Assembly (NCBI GenBank): GCA_030149205.1 | Contig: JASBSB010000003.1 | Location: forward strand, 90,001-122,000 | Direction: 5' to 3' | Source: Candidatus Heimdallarchaeota archaeon | GTDB taxonomy: Archaea > Asgardarchaeota > Heimdallarchaeia > Heimdallarchaeales > Kariarchaeaceae | DNA length: 32,000 nucleotides | Shown: one piece after another, positions 13,994 to 32,000 of the stretch | How the letters are laid out: every line of letters begins with the position of its first letter | Position numbering within the stretch: the stretch's first letter is position 1 | Made by a program: the position numbers and the translations under genes | Notes under the pieces: generated by a model | Told to the model about the DNA's origin: nothing | Database searches by the model: none | What the model saw: only the letters and a program-made list of their open reading frames with translations

Positions 13994-14041
13994 ATTCTTC
14001 TATCAGAATATATAAGAAGTTAGACGAGAAAAATAAATTAT

Positions 14042-14407: not shown

Positions 14408-14457
14408 TTGAGAACCCTATCGAGCTGTTTTTATAAATTAGTGAGGAGAAAATCTTA

Positions 14458-14637
14458 ATGAGTACAAACATTAAGTTGGAAACGTGTTATACTTGTAACA
14501 AAGAGATAAGTCCCACAGTTAAAGGAAGTACTAAATTTGATTGCCCTAACTGTGGAACTAAAATAATTAGATGTCATACCTGCAGAAGACTTGGAAACAG
14601 GTACAAATGTATCAATTGTGAATTTGTTGGACCCTGA
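14458..14637 (+). CDS. HVO_2753-like (DUF1610) double zinc-finger small protein, 59 aa; not in the ORF track
   Basis: MSTNIKLETCYTCNKEISPTVKGSTKFDCPNCGTKIIRCHTCRRLGNRYKCINCEFVGP: four CxxC motifs ending in F.GP; GAGGAG upstream; sits directly before EF-1beta as in many archaea. Confidence 0.92.
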   Translation: MSTNIKLETCYTCNKEISPTVKGSTKFDCPNCGTKIIRCHTCRRLGNRYKCINCEFVGP

Positions 14638-14647
14638 GGTGTAAAGT

Positions 14648-14926
14648 ATGGGCGAAGTAATGGTTCAATATGACATAAAAGGCAAATCACCAGACACTGA
14701 TATGGATAAAGTAGCAGAGAAAGTCAGAGAGAAATTACCTTCTTTAGATACCAGATTTAAAATGCAGTTGGGAGTTGAAATAAAACCATTGTTTTTTGGT
14801 ATCAAAGCAGCAGTGGCTCAGTTCATTCTTCCAGAGGAAGATGGAGTACAAGATAAACTCGAAGAGTGGTTGTTGAAACAAGAAGGCGTAGCAGACATCG
14901 AATTATCGTTTACTACTAGACTGTAA
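14648..14926 (+). CDS. ef1b: Archaeal translation elongation factor 1-beta
   Basis: MGEV start, PLFFGIKA motif, EGVADIE; 92 aa; GAGGTG SD-like sequence; synteny with the Zn finger. Confidence 0.9.
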   Translation: MGEVMVQYDIKGKSPDTDMDKVAEKVREKLPSLDTRFKMQLGVEIKPLFFGIKAAVAQFILPEEDGVQDKLEEWLLKQEGVADIELSFTTRL

Positions 14927-14986
14927 TAATTCAGAATATGATGATATTAAAAGAGAACTTAATAAAAAACAAAATGAAAGATAACT

Positions 14987-16870
14987 GTGTTTAATTGGAA
15001 CCATTGGTTTTATGTAAAATATAATAAAGATGACACTTTAAATTTTAATCAAATAGTTCCATTACTCCCGGAAGTCAGCAATGAAGAGGTTAGAAATCAC
15101 AAAGAATCAATAGAACTCCTTTTAGAACAATCAGATCAAATTATGGAGTTAAACTTAATTGATGAAAAAAACTTCTTAGGTCCATTTCAATTTGAAAACA
15201 TCGCATTGTTTCGTTCAAAGGAACCCAATTCGACCCAAGTTTTGGTATCTTTTGATTATGACACCCACGACTATTGGGTTCCCAAAACCTATTTTCATAA
15301 TAATTTAATAGGGAATTTTAAAGGTTACAAAGAACTTGAACAAGCTAGGTATGAAAAACTAAATATCATAGCCTCACCGTCATTTAGAGATACACAGAAT
15401 CCCATCACAGACCTTCTGGAAACAGAGCCCAGGACAAAGTTTATTCCTCTAGAATTAGATACCGCTGTGACTAATGAGAACAGTAAATCTGAATTAGAAG
15501 AATTTGTAAATCTTCTGGACTTATATTATGAACGCTTGAGAATCTCAAAAGGGGAGTATTCAACATTGAAATTCCTTAGGACTACACTTGACCAAGTAAA
15601 AAAAAAGATAGAAGAACAAAACAATGAGGGGGAAATCTACCTAGTTTTGTTAAACTTGTTTGATGCTCTTACCTTTCTTCATTTTTCACCTAGTCATCGA
15701 ATCAAAATATGTCAAACTATTAAACTTATTTTGAATACGTGTCAAGGCTATCTTTCGGAAACGACAAACTATGTATTTCAATTGTATTATGCAATTTTCA
15801 GTAACACCAGTATTGAACTGAGAGAAGATCTTGTGGAAAATTTACCTGTTTCACTTCATCTGATGTTAGATCTATTTTCAGAAAAAACACACACCCTGGA
15901 GTCATTACTCAATTTAACTGAAAGATATGTGAGTTCAGAGGTTTATTATAGAGGATATCCACTATTGAACGAATTAATTGGAAATCATTATTTTGACCTA
16001 GAAGATTTTGAAAAAGCTCAAACCTATTATTCCTTAGCAAAGAGCTATCTTATATTTCAGCAGAGTAATTCTTCTAAAAAAATGCTTTTAGACTCTTTAA
16101 TTGTCAATTCTATGGAAAAAACCATAGTCCAAATTCACCATGCAGCTCTGTATGCATTAAACACACTCAAATTAGAGGAGGCCAAACGATTTAGCTGGAC
16201 AGGTTTACTTAAAGTCTTGGAGTTGTTTGAAAAGGCATCCCAAACCGAGAACCTCAACTTAATTTCGGTGAATGATCTATTTGAGACCTTGAGACTATTT
16301 AAGAGAATCCTGGTTCTTGAAGAAAATGAAATGACCCCAGTGATTGATCTCAAAATAACATTGTTGATTGAGGAGTTAAGTGAAATATTTGAAAAACAAA
16401 CTTTAACTCTGAATACAGACTTTTTCGAGATGCATAGGGAGTCACTTAGTTTCATTGTTCCCAGAAGTCCCATTCAGTTTTTGTTTTTAACCACCGATGG
16501 TCGATTGTTATTTAATATAGTTGGATCACACCCCCCAACTCTGGTCAACGATTCTAAAAGCCATCTATTAGCAGGAGTGTTGACTGCAGTCAGAAGCATA
16601 TTTTTGGAAACAAGTTTTGGCGCGGACTCTTCATTACATGAGATCAATGCTGGAGAAAATATTCTCTTTATAGATGCTCTGGAGGGTGTCGTGGTTGTGG
16701 CATCAAATAACGTTATGAATGATAACCTGCGAAGCTTTGTTAGAAGTTTAACAAAAAATATCATGGTGAATTTTGGTAAGATACTGAACGATTGGGACGG
16801 TTCATTAGATTCAATCAGTATGGTTCAAAAATTCGCACTTTCAAGTATTGAGGAATTTATTAATGAATAA
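14987..16870 (+). CDS. Helical/TPR-like protein with a C-terminal longin/roadblock-like domain
   Basis: TPR-like LIGNHYFDLEDFEKAQTYY; C-terminal FLFLTTDGRLLF...LLAGVLTAVRSIF...LHEINAGENILFI...VVVVAS...WDG pattern. Confidence 0.6.
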   Translation: MFNWNHWFYVKYNKDDTLNFNQIVPLLPEVSNEEVRNHKESIELLLEQSDQIMELNLIDEKNFLGPFQFENIALFRSKEPNSTQVLVSFDYDTHDYWVPKTYFHNNLIGNFKGYKELEQARYEKLNIIASPSFRDTQNPITDLLETEPRTKFIPLELDTAVTNENSKSELEEFVNLLDLYYERLRISKGEYSTLKFLRTTLDQVKKKIEEQNNEGEIYLVLLNLFDALTFLHFSPSHRIKICQTIKLILNTCQGYLSETTNYVFQLYYAIFSNTSIELREDLVENLPVSLHLMLDLFSEKTHTLESLLNLTERYVSSEVYYRGYPLLNELIGNHYFDLEDFEKAQTYYSLAKSYLIFQQSNSSKKMLLDSLIVNSMEKTIVQIHHAALYALNTLKLEEAKRFSWTGLLKVLELFEKASQTENLNLISVNDLFETLRLFKRILVLEENEMTPVIDLKITLLIEELSEIFEKQTLTLNTDFFEMHRESLSFIVPRSPIQFLFLTTDGRLLFNIVGSHPPTLVNDSKSHLLAGVLTAVRSIFLETSFGADSSLHEINAGENILFIDALEGVVVVASNNVMNDNLRSFVRSLTKNIMVNFGKILNDWDGSLDSISMVQKFALSSIEEFINE

Positions 16871-17008
16871 TCAATTATTAATATTAAAATTAGATATAAA
16901 GCATTAGGGATACTGGAAACTAATCTAAGAGATTATTAAATTAAATAGTTATCTGCCAATTTTAATAAAAAAGATATTTTTATAAGTGGTCTAAATTCAA
17001 TAATTTTT

Positions 17009-17986
17009 ATGGTATTGTTATTTACGATTTTATGGGGGATATTTCTACTTTTAATGCTGGCTTTATCGTCTGAACTTTTAGCGAAGGGGGCAATATTGTT
17101 AGAACACAAATTTGGTAGCGGTTTTGTCGGATCTGTGGTTTTAGGATTTATTACAATGTTACCTGAGCTAATATTTGTATTGGTTGCAGTTAGGTCAAGA
17201 GAGATTGACGTTGCTTTAGGGTCTGCGGTCGGTGGAAACATTTTGCTTTTTACAATAGGCCTCGGTGCTGTTATTATACTGGCATATTGGAGACATAACA
17301 AAGTAATTGAGCTTCCTTTTACGATTAAGGATGATCTTTATTATCTTGTTGCTTCATCTCTTTACCTCCTCTACGCATCGTGGGATGGTTTTCTTGACAT
17401 CTATGAAGGTATTGTTTTAGTTTTGTTCTATGTCATTTTTGTTATTCACCAGTATTGGGAAGCAAAACGTCATCATGTTGAACCAGAACATGGAGAACCT
17501 CTCCCACGTAAAAAGGTGATAACAACAATAGTATTGTTTTTTGTAGGAGCAATCGGTCTCGTCATAACAGCAGAACCATTTGTTCATGTGATTGTTGAAG
17601 TATCTCATGAAACAGGTGTACCTGCAATGTTTCTTGCATTGGTAATTTCTCCTTTTGCATCTGAACTCCCTGAAAAGATAAATGCGTTTATTCTAACTAT
17701 GAATTCCATGGTAGGGGCTGAAATGGCAATTGCGAATTTCGTTGGATCCAAAATCCAAGCAAATACACTACTATTTGGTTCAATGGTCTTTTATTTTGCA
17801 ACATTAACAGGAGGTGGTAGTGTTGAAGTTGGAAAAAACTTCCTGCAAGTGATGTTATCTATAATATCCACATTAGCAGGTGTTTGGATCCTTTATGATT
17901 ACAAACTTAAATTAAAGGAAGGATATGTTGTGTTCCTGTCTTATATAATAATTGTTTTTGCAATTTATGCTAACGGAGGAGTCTGA
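17009..17986 (+). CDS. Sodium:calcium antiporter (CaCA family)
   Basis: About 10 TM segments with two alpha-repeat motifs, GFITMLPE...GSAVGGNI and FASELPE...ANFVGSKI. Confidence 0.88.
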   Translation: MVLLFTILWGIFLLLMLALSSELLAKGAILLEHKFGSGFVGSVVLGFITMLPELIFVLVAVRSREIDVALGSAVGGNILLFTIGLGAVIILAYWRHNKVIELPFTIKDDLYYLVASSLYLLYASWDGFLDIYEGIVLVLFYVIFVIHQYWEAKRHHVEPEHGEPLPRKKVITTIVLFFVGAIGLVITAEPFVHVIVEVSHETGVPAMFLALVISPFASELPEKINAFILTMNSMVGAEMAIANFVGSKIQANTLLFGSMVFYFATLTGGGSVEVGKNFLQVMLSIISTLAGVWILYDYKLKLKEGYVVFLSYIIIVFAIYANGGV

Positions 17987-18034
17987 ATACAACAGAGTTT
18001 AAAACCCCTTTATTTTGAATATAATTAACTACTT

Positions 18035-18934
18035 ATGAACCCCTTCTTTTTTTTGGATTTTTCTGAGAGCTTTGATATAGGAATAATTCAAAGCATAAAG
18101 TCGGTTACTGGCTCTAATTTAGTTATGTTTACGCATGAATCCTTTTTTGAAATCATGGTTGACAAGGTAGCAGATCGTCTTATAATTTACGCACCAAATC
18201 CAAAACTGGTTGAGGAACATCTACAAAACATCTTTCTAATGCTAGCTTCTCAGACTCAACTCGCAATATTGATTGATGCTCAAAATAGAAACCTTAAAGA
18301 CTCTGTTGAACTTATTACAAATACATTACAAAAAGCTGGTTTTAATTCAGAGTCTGTGTTGATTGAAGAGGTGGATACAAGATTCAAAATGAAGCTTGAA
18401 TCTCTTAAGGAGTTTTTCTGTGAACAACAAAGCTCCAATCTTAAACCAATATCACAAGCTGATGAGACGGATCAGATTAGAATATTTTTCTCGAAAATAA
18501 CTGAGTCTGGTCCAAGTATAATTATGGAAGATGCAAGTAGTGATTCAACACTTGGAATTGATAAATCCATGCTTTTGAGTTTAGCAACGAACCTCTCAAT
18601 AATTTTCGGACAGGGTCACCAATATGTTGAAGGTGTGATAACCCTACCTCTTAAACAAAAAATGAGCCACAAGATCATAGCTTTGACTTTAAGACTTCCT
18701 GATCAGTCTAATATAGTGGACAAACGATTGGACATTGGGGCTGGATTATTGGGTCTTATCATCCCAAACAAGCAGTTTGAAATTTTCATGAATAACTATA
18801 TACAAAAGGAAAAGGGTTTGCTTAAACATTTTAAATCATATTTTGATTTCTCCAATCTTCAGAACAGACCTTTATCTGAGTTAAAGGGAGAAATGATAGA
18901 TATACTTTCTACTTCAATATCGAGGAGCAATTGA
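18035..18934 (+). CDS. Hypothetical protein, possible C-terminal longin/uDENN-like domain
   Basis: 299-aa ORF; FFSKITESGPSII...LSIIFGQG...TLPL...IIALTL...DKR..LLGLII beta-beta-alpha-beta-beta-beta pattern. Confidence 0.5.
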   Translation: MNPFFFLDFSESFDIGIIQSIKSVTGSNLVMFTHESFFEIMVDKVADRLIIYAPNPKLVEEHLQNIFLMLASQTQLAILIDAQNRNLKDSVELITNTLQKAGFNSESVLIEEVDTRFKMKLESLKEFFCEQQSSNLKPISQADETDQIRIFFSKITESGPSIIMEDASSDSTLGIDKSMLLSLATNLSIIFGQGHQYVEGVITLPLKQKMSHKIIALTLRLPDQSNIVDKRLDIGAGLLGLIIPNKQFEIFMNNYIQKEKGLLKHFKSYFDFSNLQNRPLSELKGEMIDILSTSISRSN

Positions 18935-18977
18935 AATCTAACTAGAGGTTTTTTACAATTAAAAGTTATATATAGTT

Positions 18978-21656
18978 GTGAAAAAAGTTCGAAAGCTAAT
19001 TGGGGTCTTTCTAAATTGGAGAAGAATAGATTCCGATTCTTTCGAAGTAGATTTTTATTTGGTACCTTTTTCACAATCTCTTATTAAAATTAAACCAATT
19101 TTACGGTCAGATATACTATTGGATCTTCGTCCATCAAAGCTTCATGCGATGAGAACTAGAATCCACACTGGACACCTTAAAAAACCGATGACCTTTAAAG
19201 CATATAAAGAGAAGAACTTCAGAAATCTTGAGATAGTTGGAATTTCAAAGCAAGACAATATAGATCATCTTGATTTGTTTTTAAAGTTTTTAACTGATAA
19301 TGGGCTTCCACCACCAAAATGGTTTGAGCTCTGTAAATTCTGTATTTCAAAATACAATCTTATAAGTATAATAACTCCTAAAACTGCATACGAATATTTT
19401 GGAAATAAAGTCTGTTATTATTGCGCTTTAGAGGAGATAAAGGATGATTTCAGAAGAAGGGGATTAGAGATTACTGAGTCAACCAACAGCTTCATTACGC
19501 AACAACTTAGAAGAACGAAATCAGTAGATAAAACTGTGGACCTTGTAACCAATCGAAGGTCTCTGGTCGACAACATCGCACCCTCATTGTTTGATGTAAT
19601 ACCAGCAGACAATACCACAACCCCAGTAAATCTGAGAAAATGGTTCAAAACAGGAAGATTTAATGATAAAGTTCCAGAAAATCTAATTAAACACTGGGAG
19701 GGTTTAGGGTACACACAACTACTTCCAGCTCAACTCTTAGCACTCAACAATGGCCTTTTAGATTTGGAACATTTGCTAGTTGTAGCAGGTACATCTTCAG
19801 GAAAAACCTTTATAGCGGAAATTGCAGGTTTAACACAATGGATAAAGAAACAAGCAACTTTTATCTTTCTAACCCCATTGGTTGCACTTACCAACCAAAA
19901 GTATGAGGATTTTAAGAAAAAATACAGACCATTAGGTGCTAGAGTAAGCATCAGGGTTGGAATGACGCAGATAGAAGTCAATGATCAAGACAAGGTTATT
20001 GTAGATGGTCGGATTAAGGGTGCTGATATAATAGTTGCTACCTATGAAGCTTTTGATTGGATATTGAGAAGTGGTGAATACAAGAAAATATCTAATTTAG
20101 GTTTGGTAGTAATAGATGAGGTTCAACTGTTAGGGGATGAAGAACGCGGTCAGGAATTAGATGGAATTATCGCTAGAACAAAACTATTATTTCCACATAC
20201 ACAAATTATTGCACTTTCAGCAACAATTGGAAACAGTCAAGAATTGGCTGAAGACCTCGAAATGTCATTAGTAGAATATAATAAGAGACCAGTTGCAGTA
20301 GAACGATATATAACACTTCTTGAAAAAGATGAGGAAAAAATATCTTTAATTGCAGATTTAATTAAAAAAGACTCTAAAATCAAATCCAAGGAAGGATATT
20401 TCGGTAAAAGCTTGGTCTTTACAAATTCAAGAAGAAGAACACAAGAGATAACTGTTTTTCTCAGATCTGAGGGTATCAGAGTTGCGTATTATCATGCAGG
20501 TTTGACATATTATGAAAGGAAACGAGTTGAATCAAGGTTTGAGAAAGGAGAAATTGATGCTATTGTGACCACCGCAGCTCTTGGAGCAGGGATTGATTTT
20601 CCGATTTCACAAGTTATTCTTGAAAGACCTGCGATGGGAGTTAGGTGGTTAACAGTTGCTGAATTTTATCAGATGTTAGGGAGAGCTGGTAGGTTTGGAT
20701 ACCATTCAGTTGGTAAAGTACATTTATTACTCACACCGGGTTCGAAAATCTACGCGGGTATGAATGGAACTGAAGACACTGTTGGATTTGACCTCTTAGT
20801 AAAGGAGGTGGAACCCATAGATCTGAACATTGATTTTCAAAGTGAGGCTGAGCAGGTATTAGCTTTTGTTGCAACTCAATCAAAGACTAACTCAAAGAGA
20901 ATAAACCTATTCTATGAAAAATTAGTCTTTGAAACTAGACAGATACAAGAGATCATTAAAGTTTTGAACCATTTCAAAATGATAAGGAAGGATCGCTCAG
21001 AGGTCTATTTGAGCTTGTTGGGAAGAGCTACAGCAGAAAGCTTCCTTACTCCAAAACTCGCCTATCAGGTAGCTGTGGACACATTAAATAAGTCTGTGTT
21101 GGATGTAGCACTTAGTTTAACACCCTTCGAATCTTTGCAACTTTCTTCTAGAGCCCACGCAAGACTCGAACAAACCTTCAAAGCAAGGGTAAGCACAAGG
21201 TTCTTTAATGATACAGTTTTAGAACTAATCTCAGGGAATAGAAGCAGCAACCATACCATATCAAAATCGTTTTCGTTATTAATCAATAAATGGATAAAAT
21301 TATTTTTTGATTGTCAGTGTAAAGAAAATCCATATTGTGAACATCCCCAGATTAAAGCTTCAAAATTGATTCTAAATTTAAGAATGAAAGAAAAACTAAA
21401 TCCTGTTCAAATTAACAATATCCTGATCCAAAAATATGATCTCATGGCATATCCTGGTGACCTGTTTGCCTGGTTAGAAACTGTTCTTCATTCATTAGAA
21501 AGCATTTCTAAACTGGCTACTGCGATGAAAAAGGATGAAATCGCAGATGAGGCAAAAGAACTGAGAAAAGAAATTAGTCAAGCTCGAGGGAAACGTGGTG
21601 TTCCCAAGGGCCGGAAATCTAGAAAAAGACCACAAAAATCAATAAAATCCAAATAA
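18978..21656 (+). CDS. Archaea-specific SF2 (DEAD/DEAH-box) helicase, COG1202/DUF5814-like
   Basis: AGTSSGKT (motif I), PLVALTNQK, DEVQ (II), SAT (III), YHAGL, QMLGRAGR (VI), C-terminal CQCKENPYCEH, basic tail. Confidence 0.9.
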   Translation: MKKVRKLIGVFLNWRRIDSDSFEVDFYLVPFSQSLIKIKPILRSDILLDLRPSKLHAMRTRIHTGHLKKPMTFKAYKEKNFRNLEIVGISKQDNIDHLDLFLKFLTDNGLPPPKWFELCKFCISKYNLISIITPKTAYEYFGNKVCYYCALEEIKDDFRRRGLEITESTNSFITQQLRRTKSVDKTVDLVTNRRSLVDNIAPSLFDVIPADNTTTPVNLRKWFKTGRFNDKVPENLIKHWEGLGYTQLLPAQLLALNNGLLDLEHLLVVAGTSSGKTFIAEIAGLTQWIKKQATFIFLTPLVALTNQKYEDFKKKYRPLGARVSIRVGMTQIEVNDQDKVIVDGRIKGADIIVATYEAFDWILRSGEYKKISNLGLVVIDEVQLLGDEERGQELDGIIARTKLLFPHTQIIALSATIGNSQELAEDLEMSLVEYNKRPVAVERYITLLEKDEEKISLIADLIKKDSKIKSKEGYFGKSLVFTNSRRRTQEITVFLRSEGIRVAYYHAGLTYYERKRVESRFEKGEIDAIVTTAALGAGIDFPISQVILERPAMGVRWLTVAEFYQMLGRAGRFGYHSVGKVHLLLTPGSKIYAGMNGTEDTVGFDLLVKEVEPIDLNIDFQSEAEQVLAFVATQSKTNSKRINLFYEKLVFETRQIQEIIKVLNHFKMIRKDRSEVYLSLLGRATAESFLTPKLAYQVAVDTLNKSVLDVALSLTPFESLQLSSRAHARLEQTFKARVSTRFFNDTVLELISGNRSSNHTISKSFSLLINKWIKLFFDCQCKENPYCEHPQIKASKLILNLRMKEKLNPVQINNILIQKYDLMAYPGDLFAWLETVLHSLESISKLATAMKKDEIADEAKELRKEISQARGKRGVPKGRKSRKRPQKSIKSK

Positions 21657-22595
21657 CTAAAGTTCTTCTGCCAAAGTAATGGGTTCGCTCATTTTAATTG
21701 CCAAATCATTTAGGTCGATTTTTCTAGTTTGAATGTTATTGACCAAACCTGATCGAATTAATCGATTAGTAACTCTCTGTGCTTGATTTGTATCATTTGG
21801 ATAAAATTTAATTATCGAACCAGTTTTAATGTAATGAGGCCAAATCTCACGTAATTCATGATCTGTTAACGATCTTTTTGGAATTGCATTTATTTCATAA
21901 GAATAAGGCAATGATTCCGTTAGTTCTTTTATTGATATAGTTTGGTTAGATATTCCTCCAGGTTTTAATATTAAGATTTCACTACACAATCTCTCAATAA
22001 CGTTACTGTCATGATCCACAATTAATAGAGTTTTATTTTGAACCTTATTGGAAAGGTATTCTAAAACTTCTTCCTTACGATTGACATCTAAACCGAGAGT
22101 AACCTCATCCAAGAAGAGAATCTCACTCCTTTCCTTCATAAGCCCAATAGCAAGTCTTGTGATGGCTTTTTGTCCCTCACTAAATGTCTCTGCTCGTTTG
22201 TCTATGATATGAGTCATGTTCATATCTTGGATAAATTTGTAGGCGTCCTCAGTAGAACTATTTTGGACTTTTGCAAAAAAGTTTAGATTCTCTTCTAAGG
22301 TTAATTTTCGCTGAAAGTCTAATCCTGCCGATACAAAAACCACTCTTTCTTGAATTTCTCTTGTTTGTTTACGAAGATCCAAGTCAAGTATTTTGCAATC
22401 ACCTTCGTCTGGTAGATATAGAGTTGATAAAACTTTTAACAAAGTGGTTTTTCCAGAACCATTGCCACCGGTCACCGCAAGTTTAGCGCCTTTTCTTAGC
22501 TGAAAACTAATATCAGTTAAAATTTTGATGGGAGCTTGACCGGGAGATCGAAAAATCTTGGATAGGTTTTTACAGGTTATAGCGTAATTTACCAT
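21657..22595 (-). CDS. ABC transporter ATP-binding protein (export type)
   Basis: Walker A GGNGSGKT, signature FSEGQ, Walker B ILFLDE, H-loop VDH. Confidence 0.9.
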   Translation of the reverse strand: MVNYAITCKNLSKIFRSPGQAPIKILTDISFQLRKGAKLAVTGGNGSGKTTLLKVLSTLYLPDEGDCKILDLDLRKQTREIQERVVFVSAGLDFQRKLTLEENLNFFAKVQNSSTEDAYKFIQDMNMTHIIDKRAETFSEGQKAITRLAIGLMKERSEILFLDEVTLGLDVNRKEEVLEYLSNKVQNKTLLIVDHDSNVIERLCSEILILKPGGISNQTISIKELTESLPYSYEINAIPKRSLTDHELREIWPHYIKTGSIIKFYPNDTNQAQRVTNRLIRSGLVNNIQTRKIDLNDLAIKMSEPITLAEEL

Positions 22596-22605
22596 TTTTT
22601 GTCCC

Positions 22606-23535
22606 TCAATAAAATTCTATGGTACCCCATTTTCTGCTTACCTTTGTTAACATTCCTGCAAAAACAATTGAAATTAATACAAAAATAATTGAAACAATCA
22701 ACATAAAATGTATGGTTGGGTCTGTGATTCCAAAATTTGTTGCGTTTAATCCAAACAATTGGTTGAAGCCCTCAAATGGTAGACCATCCTTTGAACTTAA
22801 TCCACCATTTTGTAGTGCTGATTGGGTAGGAACTGAAAATATCCATCGTAGGGATTCTAGTGCATATGTTGGAGGAAACCATATAAGCAAGTTAGAGAGA
22901 GGTTTCCCAAACAAATGAATGCTCTTATCAAATGAAAAAATTGGTACAATACCACCTGAGGCAAAACGTACCACATAGATTCCAACTTTATTAAACGTTG
23001 TAGTTTTTTTAAAAATTAATGAAACAGAGGTAAAAATCAGAGTAACCCCCATCATGAATATCCATGCGATGATGAAGACAATTGTAGAAGAAACAATCAA
23101 AGTTAAAGAACTTGGATATACCCCTTTGAAGACTAAGGGAGGTATTACAATTACAAATAACACAATCATCCACCTTGCTGTTGCGGCTATATATCTACCA
23201 ACGATTAATAGCACTGGAGACACTGAATTGGTGACTAAAAAGCCCATTGTTCCTAGCTTGTTTTCCTCAATAATCGCGTCTACTGTTGATTCCATAACTC
23301 CAGAGAACACAGTGTAAAATCCTGTAGCAACTAGGAAGAAGGTGATCATTGAATAAGGTACCCCTGAGGGTGAAGCAGTGGCATCCCAAGCAGCACCGAG
23401 TAATACAAACACTAAAACATTTACCGCAGTCCATGTTATTTCAACTATTATCTGAAACTTGTAGCGAAGGTCTACAATTAGATTCCTTTTGATGACTGCG
23501 TTAAGCATTCTTAACTCGGAGAACAAAGCGAACAT
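22606..23535 (-). CDS. ABC-2 type transporter permease
   Basis: About 6 TM segments; EENKLGTMGFL and FPPTYALESLR motifs; 10 nt upstream of the ATPase on the same strand. Confidence 0.85.
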   Translation of the reverse strand: MFALFSELRMLNAVIKRNLIVDLRYKFQIIVEITWTAVNVLVFVLLGAAWDATASPSGVPYSMITFFLVATGFYTVFSGVMESTVDAIIEENKLGTMGFLVTNSVSPVLLIVGRYIAATARWMIVLFVIVIPPLVFKGVYPSSLTLIVSSTIVFIIAWIFMMGVTLIFTSVSLIFKKTTTFNKVGIYVVRFASGGIVPIFSFDKSIHLFGKPLSNLLIWFPPTYALESLRWIFSVPTQSALQNGGLSSKDGLPFEGFNQLFGLNATNFGITDPTIHFMLIVSIIFVLISIVFAGMLTKVSRKWGTIEFY

Positions 23536-23693
23536 CTTGATTTATCTAAAATTATTTCCAACACAAAGATATTTTAATCTAAGCCTAACAATCCTGAAGA
23601 ATTATCACTGAAATACTAATTGCAAAAAATGATGTTTATCTTAAGTGGTGTTCATACGAAACGGTTATTTTAAGTGAGTTTGGCAGTATAATT

Positions 23694-25229
23694 GTGTGTG
23701 TTGCAATATTAGATTTTGGCTCTCAGTACAGTCATTTAATAGTCAGACGAATTAGAGGTTTAGGATACAACGCTTTTCTTTTACCTCCGTCAACCACCTA
23801 TAGTCAATTGAGGAAACTAAGTGTGAAAGCAGTAATACTATCTGGAGGGCCACAGGATGCATATATCCAAGGATCCTTGAGGGTGGATCACAAAATTTTG
23901 GATTCAGAGCTTCCTCTTCTTGGAATTTGTTATGGACACCAATTATTGACTATTCAATCAGATGGACTGGTTGAACGTGGTGAAAAGGCAGAATACGGGA
24001 TTGCAGATGTTAAAATCAATAACAAAAATTCATTGTTCAGAGGGATTAAAACTGACTCCATCCAAGTTTGGATGTCGCATTCAGATAAGGTACAGTCACC
24101 TCCTAAAACTGCAAAGGTCCTAGCATCTAGTGCAACAGACATGTATACAGCTTTAGAATTTACACCAACCCGCTTTAGTGTTCAATTTCATCCTGAGGTA
24201 TCTCATACTGAATTTGGGTTAAACATATTAAGCAACTTTATGGAACTTACAAAATGTGAAAAAAATTGGAATCCTTCTCAGATATATACTGATATTCATA
24301 ATTCTCTACTAGGTAAAGAAGGTAACATCCTAATGGCAGTGTCTGGAGGGGTTGATTCTACAGTAGCAGCTGCATTAATAAATGAGATTTACCCTGATAA
24401 CCTGTATTGTGTGTATGTTGACACAGGATTAATGCGTGATGGAGAAACCGAGTATGTCAAATCAGTGTTTAATAAATTACACATAAATCATCTTTTCATT
24501 GTTGAGGCACAAGACCTCTTTCTTAGTCGCTTAAAGGGAGTTAAAGACCCAGAGCAGAAAAGAAAGATCATTGGACAGACATTTATAGAAATTTTTGTCG
24601 ATGAATCTAAAAAGTTAGAAAAACAATTTGGAAACTTTTCATATCTTGGTCAGGGAACAATTTACCCTGATAGAGTTGAAAGTTCCTTTGATAAAGATGG
24701 AAATTCAAAGGTTATAAAATCACATCATAATGTTGGTGGATTGCCTGATTATCTACCCTTTGACCTAATCGAACCTTTGAAAGAGTTATACAAGGACGAG
24801 GTAAGAGAAATAGGTAAGAGACTCAAATTGGATGAAGAATTTTTGTCAAGACAACCATTTCCTGGCCCAGGACTAGCTGTTAGAATTTTAGGAACAATAG
24901 ATGAAGAAAAATTAAATATAGTTAGGAAAGCTGACAAAATATTACACGAAGAATTGAAACGGAATAACCTGATTGAAAAAGCTTGGCAATTTTATGCAGC
25001 CCTGTTACCTATAAAAACAGTTGGAGTAAAAGGGGATGCCAGAAGTTATGAAAACTCAATTGTAATAAGAATAATCGATTCTATTGATGGGATGACGGCG
25101 GATATTATTGACTTACCCAAAAAAGAGGCTGTGAGAATTTCATCAAGAATTGTGAATGAAATTGATGGAGTGAACCGTGTATTCTATGATATCACACAAA
25201 AACCACCAGCAACTATTGAATTGGAGTAA
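23694..25229 (+). CDS. guaA: GMP synthase (glutamine-hydrolysing), fused GATase and ATPPase
   Basis: ILDFGSQY, GICYGHQ (catalytic Cys), QFHPEV, SGGVDS PP-loop, KSHHNVGGL, PFPGPGLAVR, KPPATIE. Confidence 0.97.
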   Translation: MCVAILDFGSQYSHLIVRRIRGLGYNAFLLPPSTTYSQLRKLSVKAVILSGGPQDAYIQGSLRVDHKILDSELPLLGICYGHQLLTIQSDGLVERGEKAEYGIADVKINNKNSLFRGIKTDSIQVWMSHSDKVQSPPKTAKVLASSATDMYTALEFTPTRFSVQFHPEVSHTEFGLNILSNFMELTKCEKNWNPSQIYTDIHNSLLGKEGNILMAVSGGVDSTVAAALINEIYPDNLYCVYVDTGLMRDGETEYVKSVFNKLHINHLFIVEAQDLFLSRLKGVKDPEQKRKIIGQTFIEIFVDESKKLEKQFGNFSYLGQGTIYPDRVESSFDKDGNSKVIKSHHNVGGLPDYLPFDLIEPLKELYKDEVREIGKRLKLDEEFLSRQPFPGPGLAVRILGTIDEEKLNIVRKADKILHEELKRNNLIEKAWQFYAALLPIKTVGVKGDARSYENSIVIRIIDSIDGMTADIIDLPKKEAVRISSRIVNEIDGVNRVFYDITQKPPATIELE

Positions 25230-25238
25230 ATTCAAAGC

Positions 25239-26006
25239 ATGAATCCGCAAAGAATTCTAATAGTTGGGCATGTTAGTCTCGATGTAATAGGGGGAGAAAA
25301 GAGAGTGGGAGGCCCACCATATTACATCCATAACACTCTAAAAGGTAAAGGACATGAGCTGACTATTTTTACCTCATATGGTAAAGATTTTACCTATGAA
25401 TTTCCAGCAAACGTCAATGTTATTCTAACCCCAGCTAAAAAAACCACTACCTACGAATTCTCTGAAGGTGATGATGAGTCAGATGATCGAACTCTTCGTT
25501 TGAGATCAAAAGCATCTCAACTCGAATTTAGTGATTTTAAGGAAAAAGGGCACTATGATTGGGTTATAATATCTGGTATAGCGGGTGAAATCAATATTGA
25601 ATCCCTTCTTGAATTTACAAAATTAGGTGAACGAAGCATCCTTGATTTACAATCTGTTACCAGACAATTTAATTCTAATAACAAGGTAGTGGTTAATCCC
25701 AATATAATTGACGTCAAGGATCTAATGGATAATTTCTTCCTTATCAAAGGCTCAACTGGAGAAATTGATATTAACAACATTGAAGAAATAACTACGAATA
25801 TACTCATCACAAAAGGAGAAAGGGGTGGGATTCTTTATACAAACAATGATTATTTTGATCTTAAAATTGACGGTGATGTTAAACCATATTCACAAACTAT
25901 TGGAATGGGAGACAGGTTGATAGGGTTAATACCTCATTATTATGTGGATAAACATTCTTTGGTTGTTGCAATTGAAAAATCTATGAAGCAACTGCTTAAT
26001 CTTTGA
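25239..26006 (+). CDS. PfkB/ribokinase-family kinase
   Basis: GHVSLD, GGPPYY, ITKGERG, TIGMGD (variant anion hole); 9 nt downstream of guaA. Confidence 0.8.
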   Translation: MNPQRILIVGHVSLDVIGGEKRVGGPPYYIHNTLKGKGHELTIFTSYGKDFTYEFPANVNVILTPAKKTTTYEFSEGDDESDDRTLRLRSKASQLEFSDFKEKGHYDWVIISGIAGEINIESLLEFTKLGERSILDLQSVTRQFNSNNKVVVNPNIIDVKDLMDNFFLIKGSTGEIDINNIEEITTNILITKGERGGILYTNNDYFDLKIDGDVKPYSQTIGMGDRLIGLIPHYYVDKHSLVVAIEKSMKQLLNL

Positions 26007-26033
26007 TCAATTTACTTTAATTAATGTTTAGGA

Positions 26034-27458
26034 CTATTCAAGGGCTTTTACTCTAGGATCATTTAAAATTTCTTGTAGGAGCCCAGCAAAGGCATTTGCA
26101 ATTTGAGTTGAGTTGGCTCTTGGTACATAACCCATTTTATTCATCCTAAACCAGAATTGATTCATTATGTACTCTCTGTTCTTTTCAAAATGCTCCTGAG
26201 GGTTTTCAGTGAATTCTTTGTAATATCTGACATCTATAAATAACACTAGAAATTGAGGATACTCCTTCATAATTGGATAGAAGAAGTCATTTAAGAAATA
26301 TTCCCTATACTTTTCCATATGAGGGATATCCTGTTTTCCAAACTCTTCTAAGGCTCGTCTTCTAAGAATCGTTTCAATGAGTCTTTTGGCCTTGATTCTT
26401 TGTTCTCCCATAAATGGTCGATTAAAATGGATAGCTTCAAAGATCATTCTATCCACGTTTGCCCTCAATGATTCTGTTGCTCCCTGTCTTGGTTGTTTTA
26501 CATTCAATAAGTTTTGGCTTGCCTCTTTTGATTCTTTCTTTTGTTTTATTGCTTCATCAATCTGAGGTTGTACCATCAATTTTACTTTGTCGTAATAAAC
26601 TTCAAATATCTGTGATTTGGTTAAATCCCAATATAAATCATCTCCGGAACTTAACGGATAGGTATTTGACAAGTTTTCATAAAGGTCAAATATTGATATA
26701 TTCTCTAGATTTTCTCTTGTGATTCCTTTGAATCCGTAAGAGATGTGAGCAATAGCATATCTTAGGTCTAATTCAACTCCACTTGATTTGTAAAGTTGAT
26801 AGATATGATCAATCAAGGGGATCAAATGTTCTCTAATAAGAATAGAAGAAATTGCCAAGGGAATTCGCTCATTTACATTATGAAGAATTAAATCTTTGAT
26901 AAATAGATTAATTGCAGACACATTGAAAATATTTGCCTGATAATACGCACTTAATACTTTGACTAATGGGGTTTCACCTTTGTTTGCATTCGAAGTTCGT
27001 TCTTGCCATGTCGGTGTGTTAATCGATTGTACGAATTTTTTTGGGATTGGTTTTAGATCTGACCTTCCTTTTACCTCAATTTGCTTTTCTTCAATTTGTT
27101 CAGGTTGAGTAATTTCTTCAGATACCGGATTACTTTCCTCAATCTCCTTCTCATCAGTTTCGGTGTTGTAAGATGATGGTATAATGGTACTTAGGTAATT
27201 TACGTCCTTAACAAATGATGTGACATCATAATCCACCAAAGACTCATCAGTAAGGCATATCCCGTATAATGCTGCAAGATTCCTGATTTCTCTGTCTTCA
27301 TAGTTTAAATGTTGTTTGATTTTTTCAACAAGTGAGTTTACATATTCCCCTTGGGTGGTTTGAAATACCTCAATCCTTGAAGAAATCGAAGTGAACACTT
27401 TTGCATATTCTTCTGTTATTTCATTTTGTAGATTTCTGCTGACACTCAAATTAAGCAC
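26034..27458 (-). CDS. Hypothetical, predominantly alpha-helical protein with an acidic linker
   Basis: 474-aa ORF with an 8-nt overlap to the upstream gene; no recognised motif. Confidence 0.7.
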   Translation of the reverse strand: MLNLSVSRNLQNEITEEYAKVFTSISSRIEVFQTTQGEYVNSLVEKIKQHLNYEDREIRNLAALYGICLTDESLVDYDVTSFVKDVNYLSTIIPSSYNTETDEKEIEESNPVSEEITQPEQIEEKQIEVKGRSDLKPIPKKFVQSINTPTWQERTSNANKGETPLVKVLSAYYQANIFNVSAINLFIKDLILHNVNERIPLAISSILIREHLIPLIDHIYQLYKSSGVELDLRYAIAHISYGFKGITRENLENISIFDLYENLSNTYPLSSGDDLYWDLTKSQIFEVYYDKVKLMVQPQIDEAIKQKKESKEASQNLLNVKQPRQGATESLRANVDRMIFEAIHFNRPFMGEQRIKAKRLIETILRRRALEEFGKQDIPHMEKYREYFLNDFFYPIMKEYPQFLVLFIDVRYYKEFTENPQEHFEKNREYIMNQFWFRMNKMGYVPRANSTQIANAFAGLLQEILNDPRVKALE

Positions 27459-28713
27459 CCCTTTCTGGTATATCGTCTATATTAGAATATTGCCCTATCT
27501 GTTCAAGATCAATTTTATCTGTTAAAATCCAATCATTTATAATTGAATTCCGTAAAATCTTTTCTAGTGTGTAACCTTTTTGGAAACCTTCAACTAAGTC
27601 TCTATTCAAAGTGACACTTGCTAAAGAGGAAACCAAAACATCTTCAAATTTAGAGCCCCCAAATTTTGAGTCAGAGATTGAGACAAATAAATTTACATCC
27701 CCATTATCAACTCTATAGTTGCATTGTAGTTTAACAAAATCCTCAAAATTTAATTTTGAAGAGTAAAAGGCCTGTGAAGGTACAGTAACTAATTCGCTGA
27801 AAAATTCGGGTGCAAGTCTATTGACTGTCAGAGAGATATTCCTAGGCATAAAAATCCCAGTAAGATACCCAAGGTAGGTTGATGGATCCTGTTCTTCTTC
27901 TGACTCAAATAATGTCGCAAATTTTGGAGGTTTTAAAAATTGAATGTTTTTAACTTTAAGAATAGGGGGAGAAGTCACCAACCCTCCCTTACAATTGGGA
28001 CAAATTGTAATATCTGAACCTTCAATATCCTTTTCTGTGAAGGACATCCCACAATCACCAACACATTGGACCTCCCCAAAATCAGGTGTCATTTGAACAT
28101 ACAATCCTAAATACATGAAGGCAGGTTTCTTGACAGTTTTTGGCTGATCTCGAAATGATCTCTCTGAGAAAATTTTGTAATGCATAAAACCACCAAGATG
28201 ATCCACATCTCTTTTGCAAATTTCAAATTTTTCTTCGTTATCAATTGAACCTATTTCTTCCTGCTTTCCAGCTCTCCTGAACACACCTGCAAGAGCTTTG
28301 CTCATGAAGTCAATTTCTTCAAAAGTAGATTCTAAATTTAAATCAGCATATGGGGTCGATAAATAGTTAAAGACATAAACATTGTTAGTATATGCTTTTT
28401 GAACATAAATATGTGGCAATAGTTTTGTTTTAGCTTCGTTTAATCTAAAGGTAGAATACACTACTGATCTAAAGATGTGCTTTTCAAATCCAAACAAGGA
28501 TTGTAAATTTAACTGACCAAAGGCTTCTTCAACCTTCAGTTTTGCTACCTCATCGCTTACAATGTCCTCGCCACCCAATAACAAAGGAAAATTCATTGGT
28601 AGCCCTGAACTTTCATCTAACATGGAAAATGTGTATAGATTTATGGAGGTTCTTTCCATCTGGATACTTACGGGAAGTTCAGTCTTGTCCGCTTCTGAAT
28701 TTTCTGAAATCAA
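27451..28713 (-). CDS. Hypothetical protein, putative tandem longin-like domains with an inserted Zn ribbon
   Basis: LYTFSMLDESSGLP...GQLNLQSLFGF (repeat 1); FMYLGLYVQ...DPSTYLGYLTGIF...VNLFVSIS (repeat 2) interrupted by CVGDC-x16-CPNC; TTGA overlap with the GTPase stop. Confidence 0.55.
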   Translation of the reverse strand: MISENSEADKTELPVSIQMERTSINLYTFSMLDESSGLPMNFPLLLGGEDIVSDEVAKLKVEEAFGQLNLQSLFGFEKHIFRSVVYSTFRLNEAKTKLLPHIYVQKAYTNNVYVFNYLSTPYADLNLESTFEEIDFMSKALAGVFRRAGKQEEIGSIDNEEKFEICKRDVDHLGGFMHYKIFSERSFRDQPKTVKKPAFMYLGLYVQMTPDFGEVQCVGDCGMSFTEKDIEGSDITICPNCKGGLVTSPPILKVKNIQFLKPPKFATLFESEEEQDPSTYLGYLTGIFMPRNISLTVNRLAPEFFSELVTVPSQAFYSSKLNFEDFVKLQCNYRVDNGDVNLFVSISDSKFGGSKFEDVLVSSLASVTLNRDLVEGFQKGYTLEKILRNSIINDWILTDKIDLEQIGQYSNIDDIPERGA

Positions 28714-29225
28714 ACTTTTTCCTCCTTAATCATCTGTTCTGAAAGATACTCAAATGCCTCTGAAATACCAAGATTCTTTAACGCAGAAGTTTCAAAATAT
28801 GGAAGATTTAATTCCTTGGCAAATGATAGAGCCTCATCTTTGCTCACTTTTCTGGCCACATCTAGATCGATTTTTGTGCCAATCAAACAAATTTTTGCGT
28901 CTGGAATTTTTGATTTAGAAGTATTAAACCAATAATCGATCTCCTCAAATGACTTTCTGTTTGTTACATCAAAACAAACTAACACACCTTTCCCTCCTTT
29001 ATAATAAGTTTCAACAATTTTGCGAAATTTTTCTTGGCCTGCAGTATCCCAAATGCTTAATCTCAATGCAGAACCGTCTTTTAATTCTAGGTTCTTAAGC
29101 ATAAAATTGGCACCTACTGTCATGAGGTGACTTTCTTTAAATCCACCCGTAGTATATCTGGTAGCAATACTAGTTTTTCCAACCGCACCTTCACCAATGA
29201 TAAGAACTTTGAAAGTTTTAACCAT
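28710..29225 (-). CDS. Rab-like small GTPase (Ras superfamily), no C-terminal prenylation motif
   Basis: G1 GEGAVGKT, G2 HLMTVG, G3 WDTAGQE, G4 GTKID, G5 ETSAL; RabF-like VGANF, RLSIW, KFRKIV, YYKGG, LVCFDVT. Confidence 0.95.
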   Translation of the reverse strand: MVKTFKVLIIGEGAVGKTSIATRYTTGGFKESHLMTVGANFMLKNLELKDGSALRLSIWDTAGQEKFRKIVETYYKGGKGVLVCFDVTNRKSFEEIDYWFNTSKSKIPDAKICLIGTKIDLDVARKVSKDEALSFAKELNLPYFETSALKNLGISEAFEYLSEQMIKEEKV

Positions 29226-29344
29226 CTACGATAATAGTTAAGGATTCATGGATTAAAACCTTTATTAAAAATTTCATCGTAATATAGAGTTCTTTTTCTA
29301 CATTGACTTAATTTATACCTTGAATATCATTAAACTCTGTAAAA

Positions 29345-30574
29345 TTGTTTAGAAAATTTATTAAGTGGTTTTCGTATATGTTCTTGATGAGCGACGAATT
29401 AGTTTCGGAAATGTACAAAGACTTCAACATTCCAAATTATTTCGTCCCCGTTTTTAGAGATATGGGTATCAACTTTATATGTTTTATAGAATTTGATATT
29501 GAAATCGGTCAGGTAGTTTATATTTCTGAAATTAAGACAGGGTCAGAATATATCAATGAAATTAGAAATATAGGCAAGCTTTCCCAGGTTTATGCGGGTG
29601 TTGCAGAAAACAATATTGATGAATTTTCAGTTTCGGATCTTGAGAAAATAGTAGTTGCCCGGCTCGACGTAGAAACTGAAACCTATGCACAGACTGTGAG
29701 TGTTTTGCTTGTGTCTTGCCTTCCGACTTCTGAAACATCAGAAATTCAAAAGATCGCTCAATCTACTTTGACTAAATCTAAAGCCAGACCAGATTTAATC
29801 CCAAAATTGTTTTATCAAAAATTGCAAGAATACAACTTCAAAAAGTTAAGTGTTATCAGACTAAAAGGAGACCAACAGAAGCTTAAAATCAATAGTTCTT
29901 CCAGAATAACCGAGGAATTAAATTTTCAATTTATAAAAGCTTTTTTGTTAATTGACTTAAACACAAATGTCGTAGACTTAAGGTTCTTTCCACAGTCCAT
30001 TAAAGACAAATCAATTGAGAGCATAGAATTTTTAAGCCTATTAGTCGATTATCACCAGACCGTGAGACCCTTTGAAATGCGAACAATTATTTTTAACAAT
30101 ATCCCCTTTCAGTACTTGTCATCTGATAAAAACACTATTGTTGTGTTATATTTTTCGGAAACAGAAATTTATGGAACAGCACGATTTACAGAGATCTCTG
30201 AGGGTATTATTAAGATAATTTATGATAATTGGAAAGATGCTTCTAAAATAGAACAGTTACATTTGTTCGAGCTATTTGATTTAACTTTGACTAAAAAAAT
30301 TCCTTTGGCTTCCATCGAAAAGTATGCACAAATTAGTTTAAGAAGTGAGAGAATTATTCCAACAATAAATCATGACATGCTATTTGATTTAAAAATTGAA
30401 ATTGATCCGCTCATAAATTCACAACTTTGGGCCAACCTTAAAAGTCTTAATGGTGAGGAAAGTGTACATGAGCTTACACAAGCCTGGAATAAGAACATAC
30501 TACAAACTATTTTATTACTAGAATGGGCAAGGGTACGAAATGTCTTAAGTTACGTGGATAAAGCAAAACGTTAA
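29345..30574 (+). CDS. Putative longin/uDENN-domain protein with a C-terminal winged helix (NPRL2-like architecture)
   Basis: INFICFIEFDIEIGQVVY N-terminal strand-turn motif; C-terminal IIPTIN...LKSLNGEESVHELTQAW...LLLEWARVRNVL. Alternative ATGs at 29378 and 29387. Confidence 0.5.
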   Translation: MFRKFIKWFSYMFLMSDELVSEMYKDFNIPNYFVPVFRDMGINFICFIEFDIEIGQVVYISEIKTGSEYINEIRNIGKLSQVYAGVAENNIDEFSVSDLEKIVVARLDVETETYAQTVSVLLVSCLPTSETSEIQKIAQSTLTKSKARPDLIPKLFYQKLQEYNFKKLSVIRLKGDQQKLKINSSSRITEELNFQFIKAFLLIDLNTNVVDLRFFPQSIKDKSIESIEFLSLLVDYHQTVRPFEMRTIIFNNIPFQYLSSDKNTIVVLYFSETEIYGTARFTEISEGIIKIIYDNWKDASKIEQLHLFELFDLTLTKKIPLASIEKYAQISLRSERIIPTINHDMLFDLKIEIDPLINSQLWANLKSLNGEESVHELTQAWNKNILQTILLLEWARVRNVLSYVDKAKR

Positions 30575-30632
30575 TCAGTAAAAATTCTAGAAGACTTATT
30601 AAGTCTAGAGTTCATTTTTAGATTTAGGTTAT

Positions 30633-31604
30633 ATGGGTAGTCTAGAGAAATTACCGACTAATTTGAAGATTGCTGTAATTCAGTATTGTAAGTGGTTAAT
30701 GAAGCATAAGCTAGATACACCAATGGAAACCCCTGCAATGATAGGCAAAATCTTTTACGAGAAAAATTGGTCAGATAAATACATTCCAGTTGTAGAATAT
30801 ATCTTCAAATTTTTGGTTCTATTTGAAATTCTTGAAGAATCCGGTGATATGTTTTCTTTGAGGGTACAAAACTTAAATTTGTTAATTGATAGATTGTACA
30901 CAAGTATTAGTATTAAAATCGTGGTGGATCAGCAACCTGTATATGTCTTTATTGAACTACTCCTGAATTCCTTAGATGTTGAACTAGATTGGGACCAATC
31001 AATTGTTGACATTGAACAACACTCACTTCTTTGGGAAAGTGTTATTGACCCTTATGCAGACTCAATTGCATTAGTTGCCCATGAAAAATTAATTAATAAA
31101 AATTCGATAACTGATGATATTTCTGTGTGCATAATTGGTGAAAATCTCTACAAAATAATTGAAGCAATTGCAAGTACAACTATGTACCCCGAAAACGTCG
31201 ATATTGTAGTCCCAAATAAATTAAGGAAGGATCAATTAATATCACAAATAGAGTTAAATTCTGAGCTAAGTGATTATTTACCTCGTATTAAGTTGTATGA
31301 GGACGATTCATCAAAGAGTTACGAGGTGATTGTTGCATTCTGTTATTTTGGGTTATATCTTGAAGAATCTAATGCTTTTAATCTTATAAGAGCAAGATCA
31401 CATCCAGGAACTGAAGTGTTGTTTCAGATTTGTAGTACTGACCAACCTACCTTTGGATTTGAACCACTTCTCAAACTAATCAAACAGTGGAGATTTGCAC
31501 TATCAACAAGCAATTTTAAAACCAAATTTTCAAATTTGGGTTATTCCAAAATAGAAACCGCTGACGATGACAAGAAAATATTTACAATGGAATTTTCACC
31601 CTGA
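30633..31604 (+). CDS. Hypothetical protein, possible degenerate class I methyltransferase fold with an N-terminal winged helix
   Basis: FLVLFEILEESGDMFSL (wHTH wing-like), SVCIIG, SYEVIVAFCYF, HPGTEVLF; the GxGxG SAM motif is absent. Confidence 0.45.
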   Translation: MGSLEKLPTNLKIAVIQYCKWLMKHKLDTPMETPAMIGKIFYEKNWSDKYIPVVEYIFKFLVLFEILEESGDMFSLRVQNLNLLIDRLYTSISIKIVVDQQPVYVFIELLLNSLDVELDWDQSIVDIEQHSLLWESVIDPYADSIALVAHEKLINKNSITDDISVCIIGENLYKIIEAIASTTMYPENVDIVVPNKLRKDQLISQIELNSELSDYLPRIKLYEDDSSKSYEVIVAFCYFGLYLEESNAFNLIRARSHPGTEVLFQICSTDQPTFGFEPLLKLIKQWRFALSTSNFKTKFSNLGYSKIETADDDKKIFTMEFSP

Positions 31605-31612
31605 ACTTCATA

Positions 31613-31999
31613 TCATTCTCCTAAATTGTTGATATAAAACGCAAGAGCAGCTAACAACAATGTTAATCCTGCTACCCAACTAAGTGGAAGAAGTGTGTCA
31701 ACACCCAACTTGCCTTTTAGAATAATTCCAAACAGAGTAACTTCGAAAGTTGCTCGCATGACTGCAGCAAATAGTAAAAATTTTGTATTGATTTCTACTG
31801 CATTGATAAAATAGAAAATGGAGAAAGATTCTATGAATACTATACTTAAATAAAAAATACCCACGTTTATCTCCATCTGATAAAATGGCAAATGAAGTAA
31901 TACCTCAATCAAACTCCATAATATAACAGTTGCAAAAAATTCCTCTTTGTTAAAAGTACTCTCTCCATAATCGTAAAGAATTAACCATTGCGACCCAAC
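31613..31999 (-). CDS. Integral membrane protein, 5' end outside the window
   Basis: The frame of the 31613-31912 ORF stays open upstream to the window end (VGSQWLILYDYGESTFNKEEFFATVILWS...), so the TTG at 31912 is probably not the start; several hydrophobic segments. Confidence 0.65.
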   Translation of the reverse strand, partial: VGSQWLILYDYGESTFNKEEFFATVILWSLIEVLLHLPFYQMEINVGIFYLSIVFIESFSIFYFINAVEINTKFLLFAAVMRATFEVTLFGIILKGKLGVDTLLPLSWVAGLTLLLAALAFYINNLGE

Positions 32000-32000
32000 A

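Follow-up and report, generated by a model that had tools for sequence, protein, structure and literature searches.

A conserved Asgard archaeal operon links a Rab-like GTPase to a predicted double-longin protein and its obligate neighbor, and probably stands apart from the longin gene that faces it

Can a Rab-like GTPase gene lying among longin genes in an Asgard archaeon point to the regulator of that GTPase? Asgard genomes carry genes for dozens of small GTPases of eukaryotic type, as well as for many longin and roadblock proteins, and the assignment of regulators to GTPases in these organisms is, to our knowledge, largely unknown. Asgard GTPases are generally not found in operons with longin genes, and cognate pairs are hard to read from genomes (Tran et al., PMC10933270). 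We analyzed a 32,000-nucleotide (nt) stretch of a Candidatus Heimdallarchaeota genome (contig JASBSB010000003.1, positions 90,001 to 122,000), hereafter called the window, in which the gene for a Rab-like GTPase is followed on the minus strand by two further genes, X and Y, and is faced on the plus strand by a fourth, Z. An earlier note on this DNA had read these four open reading frames at 26034-30574, all of them present and correctly placed, as one self-contained switch made up of a GTPase, longin regulators and a possible effector. The reading that we favor, and hold to be moderately probable, is that the window contains two independent modules lying head to head, with the X-Y pair binding and controlling the operon GTPase and Z belonging to a separate unit with its own downstream partner, D.

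The case for a GTPase-X-Y unit begins with its recurrence. Contig look-ups and whole-genome searches turned up 13 more non-duplicate loci, belonging to two families, in which the three genes keep their order and share a strand, with identities to the window of 31-70% for the GTPase, 21-62% for X and 23-49% for Y; the most divergent copies stand at 31-38%, 21-25% and 23-29%, respectively. Apart from one genus, every examined locus of two of the three X-holding families of the order has this arrangement. The flanking genes differ between the two families (the second has radical SAM, GNAT and enolase-superfamily genes), and because the order recurs in 13 other loci with family-specific flanks, it goes beyond chance. 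The suggestion of the earlier note that the three same-strand genes form a coupled unit is thus upheld, and the unit is a conserved one. Within it, X and Y overlap or abut almost everywhere, and the spacer between the GTPase gene and X is -11 to +2 nt in four of five other loci of the window's family and 33-133 nt in the second family.

The X-Y pair reaches further than the three-gene unit. A profile search found X in 51 of 400 genomes of the phylum, with a sporadic distribution in other classes, and the Y family co-occurs with it. X and Y are adjacent in all 26 loci examined, 10 of which come from other Asgard orders and classes, and for that reason we regard X-Y as an old core. One of these distant loci, L030 (G397:C51, 171-9192), belongs to another Asgard class and holds X-Y amid GTPase genes, all on one strand: an Arf-like GTPase fusion (386 amino acids [aa]) and a Rag/Arf-like GTPase fusion (365 aa) lie upstream, and a Ras-family GTPase fusion (320 aa) and a V4R protein with the TRAPPC3 fold (475 aa) lie downstream. 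This is an independent second association of X-Y with GTPases, differently arranged. L030 also contains a histidine kinase fragment, and its Y is short (286 aa).

The gene junctions in the window fit a tightly coupled unit (Table 1). The TTGA overlap between the GTPase gene and X is real, as the TGA stop of the former and a TTG start of the latter share 4 nt, and the sequence AAGGAGG is found 8 nt upstream of that TTG. The long TTG start is supported by the alignment, since X residues 18-30 are conserved in all homologues. The deposited X protein begins at Met31 (390 aa), lacks about 30 conserved N-terminal residues and is too short. An overlap of 8 nt between X and Y holds if Y starts at its GTG; with an in-frame TTG three codons further on, the two genes are instead 1 nt apart. 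X and Y are tightly coupled whichever start of Y is used. None of the four proteins (GTPase, X, Y and Z) has a hydrophobic segment long enough to span a membrane. A search for sequencing runs that contain RNA from the 4.5-kb stretch of these genes returned none.

Table 1. Coordinates of the features of the locus, as window positions
Feature	Position	Strand	Basis
Rab-like small GTPase, 171 aa	28710..29225	-	Pfam Ras 8e-51; PDB matches; orthologue alignment
X, 420-aa tandem-longin protein, family without a Pfam model	27451..28713	-	AlphaFold2 model and structural search
X longin domain 1, residues 17-188	28150..28665	-	DSSP of the model and structural matches
X longin domain 2, residues 197-395	27529..28125	-	Structural matches
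Zinc ribbon of X (Cys217, Cys221, Cys238, Cys241)	27991..28065	-	Alignment; weak Zn_ribbon Pfam matches
Y, 474 aa, obligate neighbor of X	26034..27458	-	Alignment; adjoins X in 26/26 loci
Divergent intergenic region, AT-rich, TATA-like boxes for both units	29226..29344	.	Reading of the sequence only
Z, longin-longin-winged-helix protein, probable start ATG 29387 (395 aa)	29345..30574	+	AlphaFold2, VIA-align, Foldseek
D, 323 aa, conserved downstream partner of Z, outside the GTPase operon	30633..31604	+	Z-D in 13/15 Z loci

The first gene of the operon encodes a GTPase of the kind that the earlier note had proposed. It matches Pfam Ras (E 8e-51, 172 bits), and its motifs are intact: the P-loop GEGAVGKT, Thr36 of switch I, DTAGQE with the catalytic Gln, TKID and ETSAL. 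Its closeness to Rab was judged from PDB sequence matches rather than from a phylogeny with eukaryotic sequences, and by that measure all 60 of the 60 best matches are Rab, Ypt or Sec4 proteins (E 2e-37 to 1e-32), led by Rab21, Rab10, Sec4, Rab35 and Rab8 (E about 1e-37 to 1e-35). A C-terminal Cys for prenylation is absent; the protein ends in KEEKV and has no Cys in its last 80 residues, so we call it Rab-like and not a strict, prenylated Rab. About 27 Ras-family genes, this one included, are present in the genome. A tree of 48 GTPase domains, including 17 scored paralogues from the window genome, placed the operon GTPases in two family clades, with values of 99 and 100 in the Shimodaira-Hasegawa-like approximate likelihood ratio test (SH-aLRT). 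The two clades group with the GTPase of L030, and none of the 17 scored paralogues falls inside them. Candidates for a relocated GTPase in the genus that has X-Y and no adjacent GTPase gene are placed as sister to the operon GTPases, weakly (81).

Several peculiarities of the operon GTPases emerged from the alignments. NKxD is present in 14 of 15 orthologues, the window copy alone reading TKID. The GTPases of the second family have ADSGSQE in place of WDTAGQE, with Ser substituted for the Gly of DxxG, and carry Pro at the position of Ras Gly12 (GxPGVGKT). One genome has a Ras-like fragment of 55 aa between the GTPase gene and X (L003, 5824-5991), probably a relic of a tandem GTPase duplication.

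The protein encoded after the GTPase belongs to a family that sequence searches describe poorly. We found 19 homologues of X in a set of 5.8 billion proteins, one of them assigned by NCBI to a Heimdallarchaeota archaeon. None of the 19 has a Pfam domain, the Pfam search giving only weak zinc ribbons, and zinc fingers are the only matches of the family profile to PDB sequences. An AlphaFold2 model built from a 17-sequence alignment (predicted local distance difference test [pLDDT] 84.4; predicted template modeling score 0.84) shows two beta-beta-alpha-beta-beta-beta-alpha units. According to DSSP, domain 1 of the model runs beta-beta-alpha-beta-beta-beta-alpha-alpha, and the order of elements fits a longin domain at residues 24-183 and again at 199-378. 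In an exhaustive VIA-align search of the PDB, about 37 of the 38 chains with a Z-score of at least 5 are longin or roadblock domains, the best match having a Z-score of 7.7 (root-mean-square deviation 4.4, 135 residues aligned). Domain 1 resembles the Lokiarchaeal Roadblock-Longin protein 8yqg_B (Z-score 7.7), C9orf72-SMCR8 (7.6), FLCN-FNIP2 (7.2), MON1A-CCZ1 (7.2), Ccz1/Mon1 (6.8-7.0), sedlin (7.0) and CPLANE (6.8), and domain 2 resembles AP-3 sigma/mu (6.5-6.6), the longin (uDENN) part of DENND1A (6.5) and synbindin (6.4). The prediction that the gene after the GTPase encodes a longin protein therefore held, with two such domains in the model.

Two features give X its particular character. 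A zinc ribbon is inserted between strands 1 and 2 of longin domain 2, and its first three Cys are nearly invariant in the family alignment; weak Zn_ribbon Pfam matches were obtained for 8 of 17 members. The ribbon is not universal, being deleted in one genus (L018) and lacking its fourth Cys in three close homologues. Elsewhere in X, Arg147, Glu184 and Arg371 are near-invariant. The GP motif of GAP-type longins (those of GTPase-activating proteins [GAPs]) is not found in X. The loop between strands 1 and 2 reads SG(L/I/M)P in domain 1 of the window's family and is unconserved in the second family, and the same position in domain 2 is occupied by the zinc ribbon. The likeness of domain 2 to DENND1A (Z-score 6.5) is restricted to the longin part, and Pfam DENN is unmatched by X, Y or Z and has no real match anywhere in the genome.

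In the alignment of Y, an N-terminal segment and a C-terminal region of about 300 aa are conserved, and an acidic linker is confined to genomes of the window's family. The Y family profile has no match to the PDB at E below 0.02, and the ESM Atlas returned no usable match for the whole protein, its C-terminal 310 residues or a homologue. We considered whether the DLR and YPQ motifs of Y could be the Arg and Gln fingers of a TBC RabGAP and dropped this idea, as their spacing is about 170 residues against about 35 and no TBC chain was matched. Profile-profile comparisons among X, Y and Z found no kinship, and the lack of such similarity between Y and X gives no indication of a longin-longin heterodimer.

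Taken together, these observations suggest the following model. The first module would be the minus-strand operon, which encodes a soluble Rab-like GTPase together with X and Y. X and Y, an ancient and translationally coupled pair, most likely form a stable complex, and in the window's Heimdall-type order one particular GTPase orthologue has become attached to this pair. The complex most likely binds the operon GTPase via the longin platform of X and would set its nucleotide state, as longin guanine nucleotide exchange factors (GEFs) and GAPs do in eukaryotes. Between these two activities we lean weakly toward exchange, because X is without the GP motif of GAP-type longins. The second module, Z with D, would be an NPRL2/folliculin-like longin unit.

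Several points weigh against this model. Formation of an X-Y complex, its binding to the GTPase and its activity are what we infer from identities, folds and synteny, and a shared longin fold does not establish function or direction, that is, GEF as opposed to GAP. The structural Z-scores of X are moderate (5-7.7), though the list of matches is uniform. A Foldseek search of X against the PDB gave no longin match at E<=0.001; rows for PAS domains began at E 2e-3, with CPLANE and GATOR1 near E 0.02, and a shape search of the ESM Atlas reached a template modeling score (TM) of only about 0.2. Y has no recognizable family, and no Pfam family recurs among its 21 members. Support is weak (SH-aLRT 80) for the branch uniting the operon GTPase clades of the two families with each other and with the L030 GTPase. 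Nine of the 10 X-Y loci outside the order have no adjacent GTPase gene, and neither has one genus of the order itself, represented by two complete genomes; X-Y therefore does not need a neighboring GTPase gene. A complex prediction of X with the GTPase, run with alignments, gave scores of 0.13 and 0.07 (the mark being 0.32) and counts neither way.

The persistence of X-Y in many lineages without an adjacent GTPase is also what one would see if the pair were an effector or scaffold, sensing the GTP-bound GTPase and relaying its signal while regulating neither exchange nor hydrolysis. We consider this a serious rival, if an unlikely one. Longins also serve as noncatalytic adaptors, and the SNARE longins, AP sigma/mu and SRX are among the matches of X; the missing GP motif fits such a role too, and Y is large and well conserved, as an output module would be. 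Against this, most eukaryotic multi-longin proteins whose genes accompany those of Rab or Rag, or that bind these GTPases, are GEFs or GAPs (PMC12290439). The present evidence does not separate the effector from the regulator reading of X-Y.

Whether Z belongs with the operon is a separate matter, on which its structure and its genomic setting speak differently. A full HMMER scan found 22 relatives. The AlphaFold2 model of Z (pLDDT 84.6) contains two longin/roadblock domains (residues 12-154 and 180-302) and a C-terminal winged helix (312-393), and VIA-align matched longins and winged helices, the best being a Lokiarchaeal longin (Z-score 8.7). Foldseek returned 11 matches at E<=1e-3, all of the Mon1-Ccz1 or NPRL2/3 type (GATOR1/SEA; probability 0.84-1.0), with E values of 2e-4 to 9e-4 for the NPRL2/3 chains. 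NPRL2, C9orf72 and Fuzzy are among the nearest clusters in the ESM Atlas, at a TM of only about 0.3. Pfam NPR2 (PF06218) was not matched, and neither Z nor 14 homologues had any Pfam match at E<=1. The prediction that the divergent gene encodes a longin protein is thus borne out; the protein has several domains, and its likeness to NPRL2 is a structural one only. GP stands just before strand 2 of longin domain 1 in 13 of 14 aligned family members, and Arg92 in the same domain is kept in 14 of 15; the Z of the window reads GQ where the family has GP.

The length that the earlier note gave to this gene (409 aa) and its distance from the GTPase gene (119 nt) apply to a TTG start at 29345. The homologues align instead to the ATG at 29387, which gives 395 aa and a gap of 161 nt. 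The sequence between the two genes contains candidate TATA-like boxes, TTTATTAAAAA near 29262 and TTTATA near 29313.

The genomic setting of Z differs from that of X and Y. Homologues of Z are present in 32 of 41 related genomes, and only in the window genome do they adjoin the operon. The distance between Z and the operon is 14 kb in a same-genus genome and about 1.9 Mb in two complete genomes belonging to the order, and at all 14 other Z loci a GTPase gene is absent from the surrounding 4 kb or so. What does follow Z is D, in 13 of 15 Z loci and in two families; Z-D is a conserved two-gene unit, and D, which has no Pfam match, is a 323-aa protein of no known family. Relative to two same-genus genomes, a shared set of roughly 20 genes has been reordered by several local inversions (window 12000-32000 and beyond); the reshuffled set includes genes for a helicase, an ABC ATPase, a Na/Ca exchanger and an aldehyde dehydrogenase, along with guaA. 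The helicase gene comes next after Z-D in those genomes and lies 8 kb away in the window. From this comparison of gene orders, the head-to-head placement appears to have come from recent local inversions in the window's lineage. Z is 27-31% identical to its same-genus counterparts, compared with 62% for X and 60% for the GTPase. This low identity and the lost Pro of the GP motif suggest fast or relaxed evolution, or a paralogue.

These results speak against the original proposal that all four genes form a single switch, with X and Z both acting as regulators (for example, one GEF and one GAP) and Y as the effector, which we now consider very unlikely. It does draw on the multi-longin build of Z, its NPRL2/Mon1-Ccz1 structural class and a family with the GAP-type GP motif and Arg, on the putative divergent promoter region of 119-161 nt that Z and the GTPase gene share in the window, and on the presence of Z and the operon within the same 15-kb neighborhood in a same-genus genome. 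Z, however, adjoins the operon in just 1 of 15 loci, has elsewhere no GTPase gene close by, can lie 1.9 Mb from X, and is retained with D instead; in the window it has even lost the GP Pro, and it diverges within the genus far more than X does. Least probable of all the readings weighed here is that the linkage reflects co-expression only, with X-Y serving a process unrelated to GTPases and the GTPase having joined by chance in the ancestor of the order: the distant loci and the one genus without a neighboring GTPase would suit it, as would the spacers of the second family, which mean that there is no translational coupling there, but the order has survived divergence to about 21-25% X identity across two families, L030 offers a second and differently arranged GTPase association in another class, and small GTPases are handled more often by the fold of X than by any other.

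The favored model, in which X-Y controls the operon GTPase, can be compared with several known systems. Liu et al. (bioRxiv 10.1101/2020.10.19.343400) described a predicted Asgard operon in which a LAMTOR1-like roadblock protein is encoded alongside a Rab-like GTPase and a DENN-domain protein. Both are conserved Asgard clusters of a Rab-like (not Rag) GTPase with putative regulators of the longin/roadblock superfamily. Unlike that operon, the window and the other loci of its family have no adjacent roadblock gene, and the partners are a zinc-ribbon tandem longin and a Y of about 450 aa, with no Pfam DENN match in X, Y or the genome. The two are set apart here by described composition only and may overlap. 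Like the tri-longin Rab GEFs (Mon1-Ccz1, Fuzzy-Inturned/CPLANE and BLOC-3), the operon has several longin domains in one chain and would combine a putative client of Rab type with a regulator of two subunits, as predicted for X-Y, but the model of X has two longin domains where the subunits of those GEFs have three, X carries the zinc ribbon insert, and there is no sequence similarity.

Eukaryotic longin heterodimers are Rab GEFs or Rag/Arf GAPs, and the GP signature is found in folliculin, NPRL2, SMCR8 and C9orf72 and in a class of Asgard longins (PMC12290439). It is Z, not X, that resembles GATOR1 NPRL2-NPRL3, FLCN-FNIP and C9orf72-SMCR8 in this respect, as its family has GP before strand 2 and a nearly invariant Arg; it differs from these GAP complexes in having two longins plus a winged helix, no DENN domain, no Pfam NPR2 match and GQ in the window copy, and X differs from them in having no GP motif. 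MglA-MglB is likewise an operon-encoded GTPase with a partner of the roadblock/longin superfamily (a putative regulator in our case), but the GTPase of the window is Rab-like, with the catalytic Gln of DTAGQE, and not MglA-like, and its partner is a 420-aa double longin together with a second large protein rather than a 15-kDa roadblock dimer.

What the locus provides is a single pairing out of about 27 Ras-family genes, that of a Rab-like GTPase with an undescribed double-longin, zinc-ribbon protein and its obligate partner, and this is useful because Asgard GTPases are rarely in operons with longin genes (PMC10933270). All three proteins are soluble and of tractable size, and separating Z-D from the operon avoids the pursuit of a wrong four-component model. 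New here are the fold assigned to X, the recognition of X-Y as a pan-Asgard core, a second association of the pair with GTPases, and the case for treating Z-D separately. If X-Y is indeed a GEF or a GAP, multi-longin control of Rab-type switches would predate eukaryotes, and the operon would offer a biochemical entry point to it. A bolder conjecture, which we regard as quite doubtful, is that the multi-longin Rab exchange factors of eukaryotes (Mon1-Ccz1, BLOC-3 and CPLANE) had an archaeal forerunner in X-Y, which was already paired with a Rab-like client before eukaryotes arose, and that the clustering at L030 of Arf-, Rag- and Ras-type GTPases with a TRAPPC3-fold protein is a trace of an ancestral hub of GTPases and regulators.

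The operon may have a further, looser associate. A 627-aa protein without a Pfam match is encoded in the window at 14987-16870 (+), 9 kb from the operon, and in four loci of the window's family (L001, L002, L003 and L004) the genes for its homologues follow Y immediately or lie no more than about 1.3 kb from it. This protein may be a fourth, loosely linked component of the operon.

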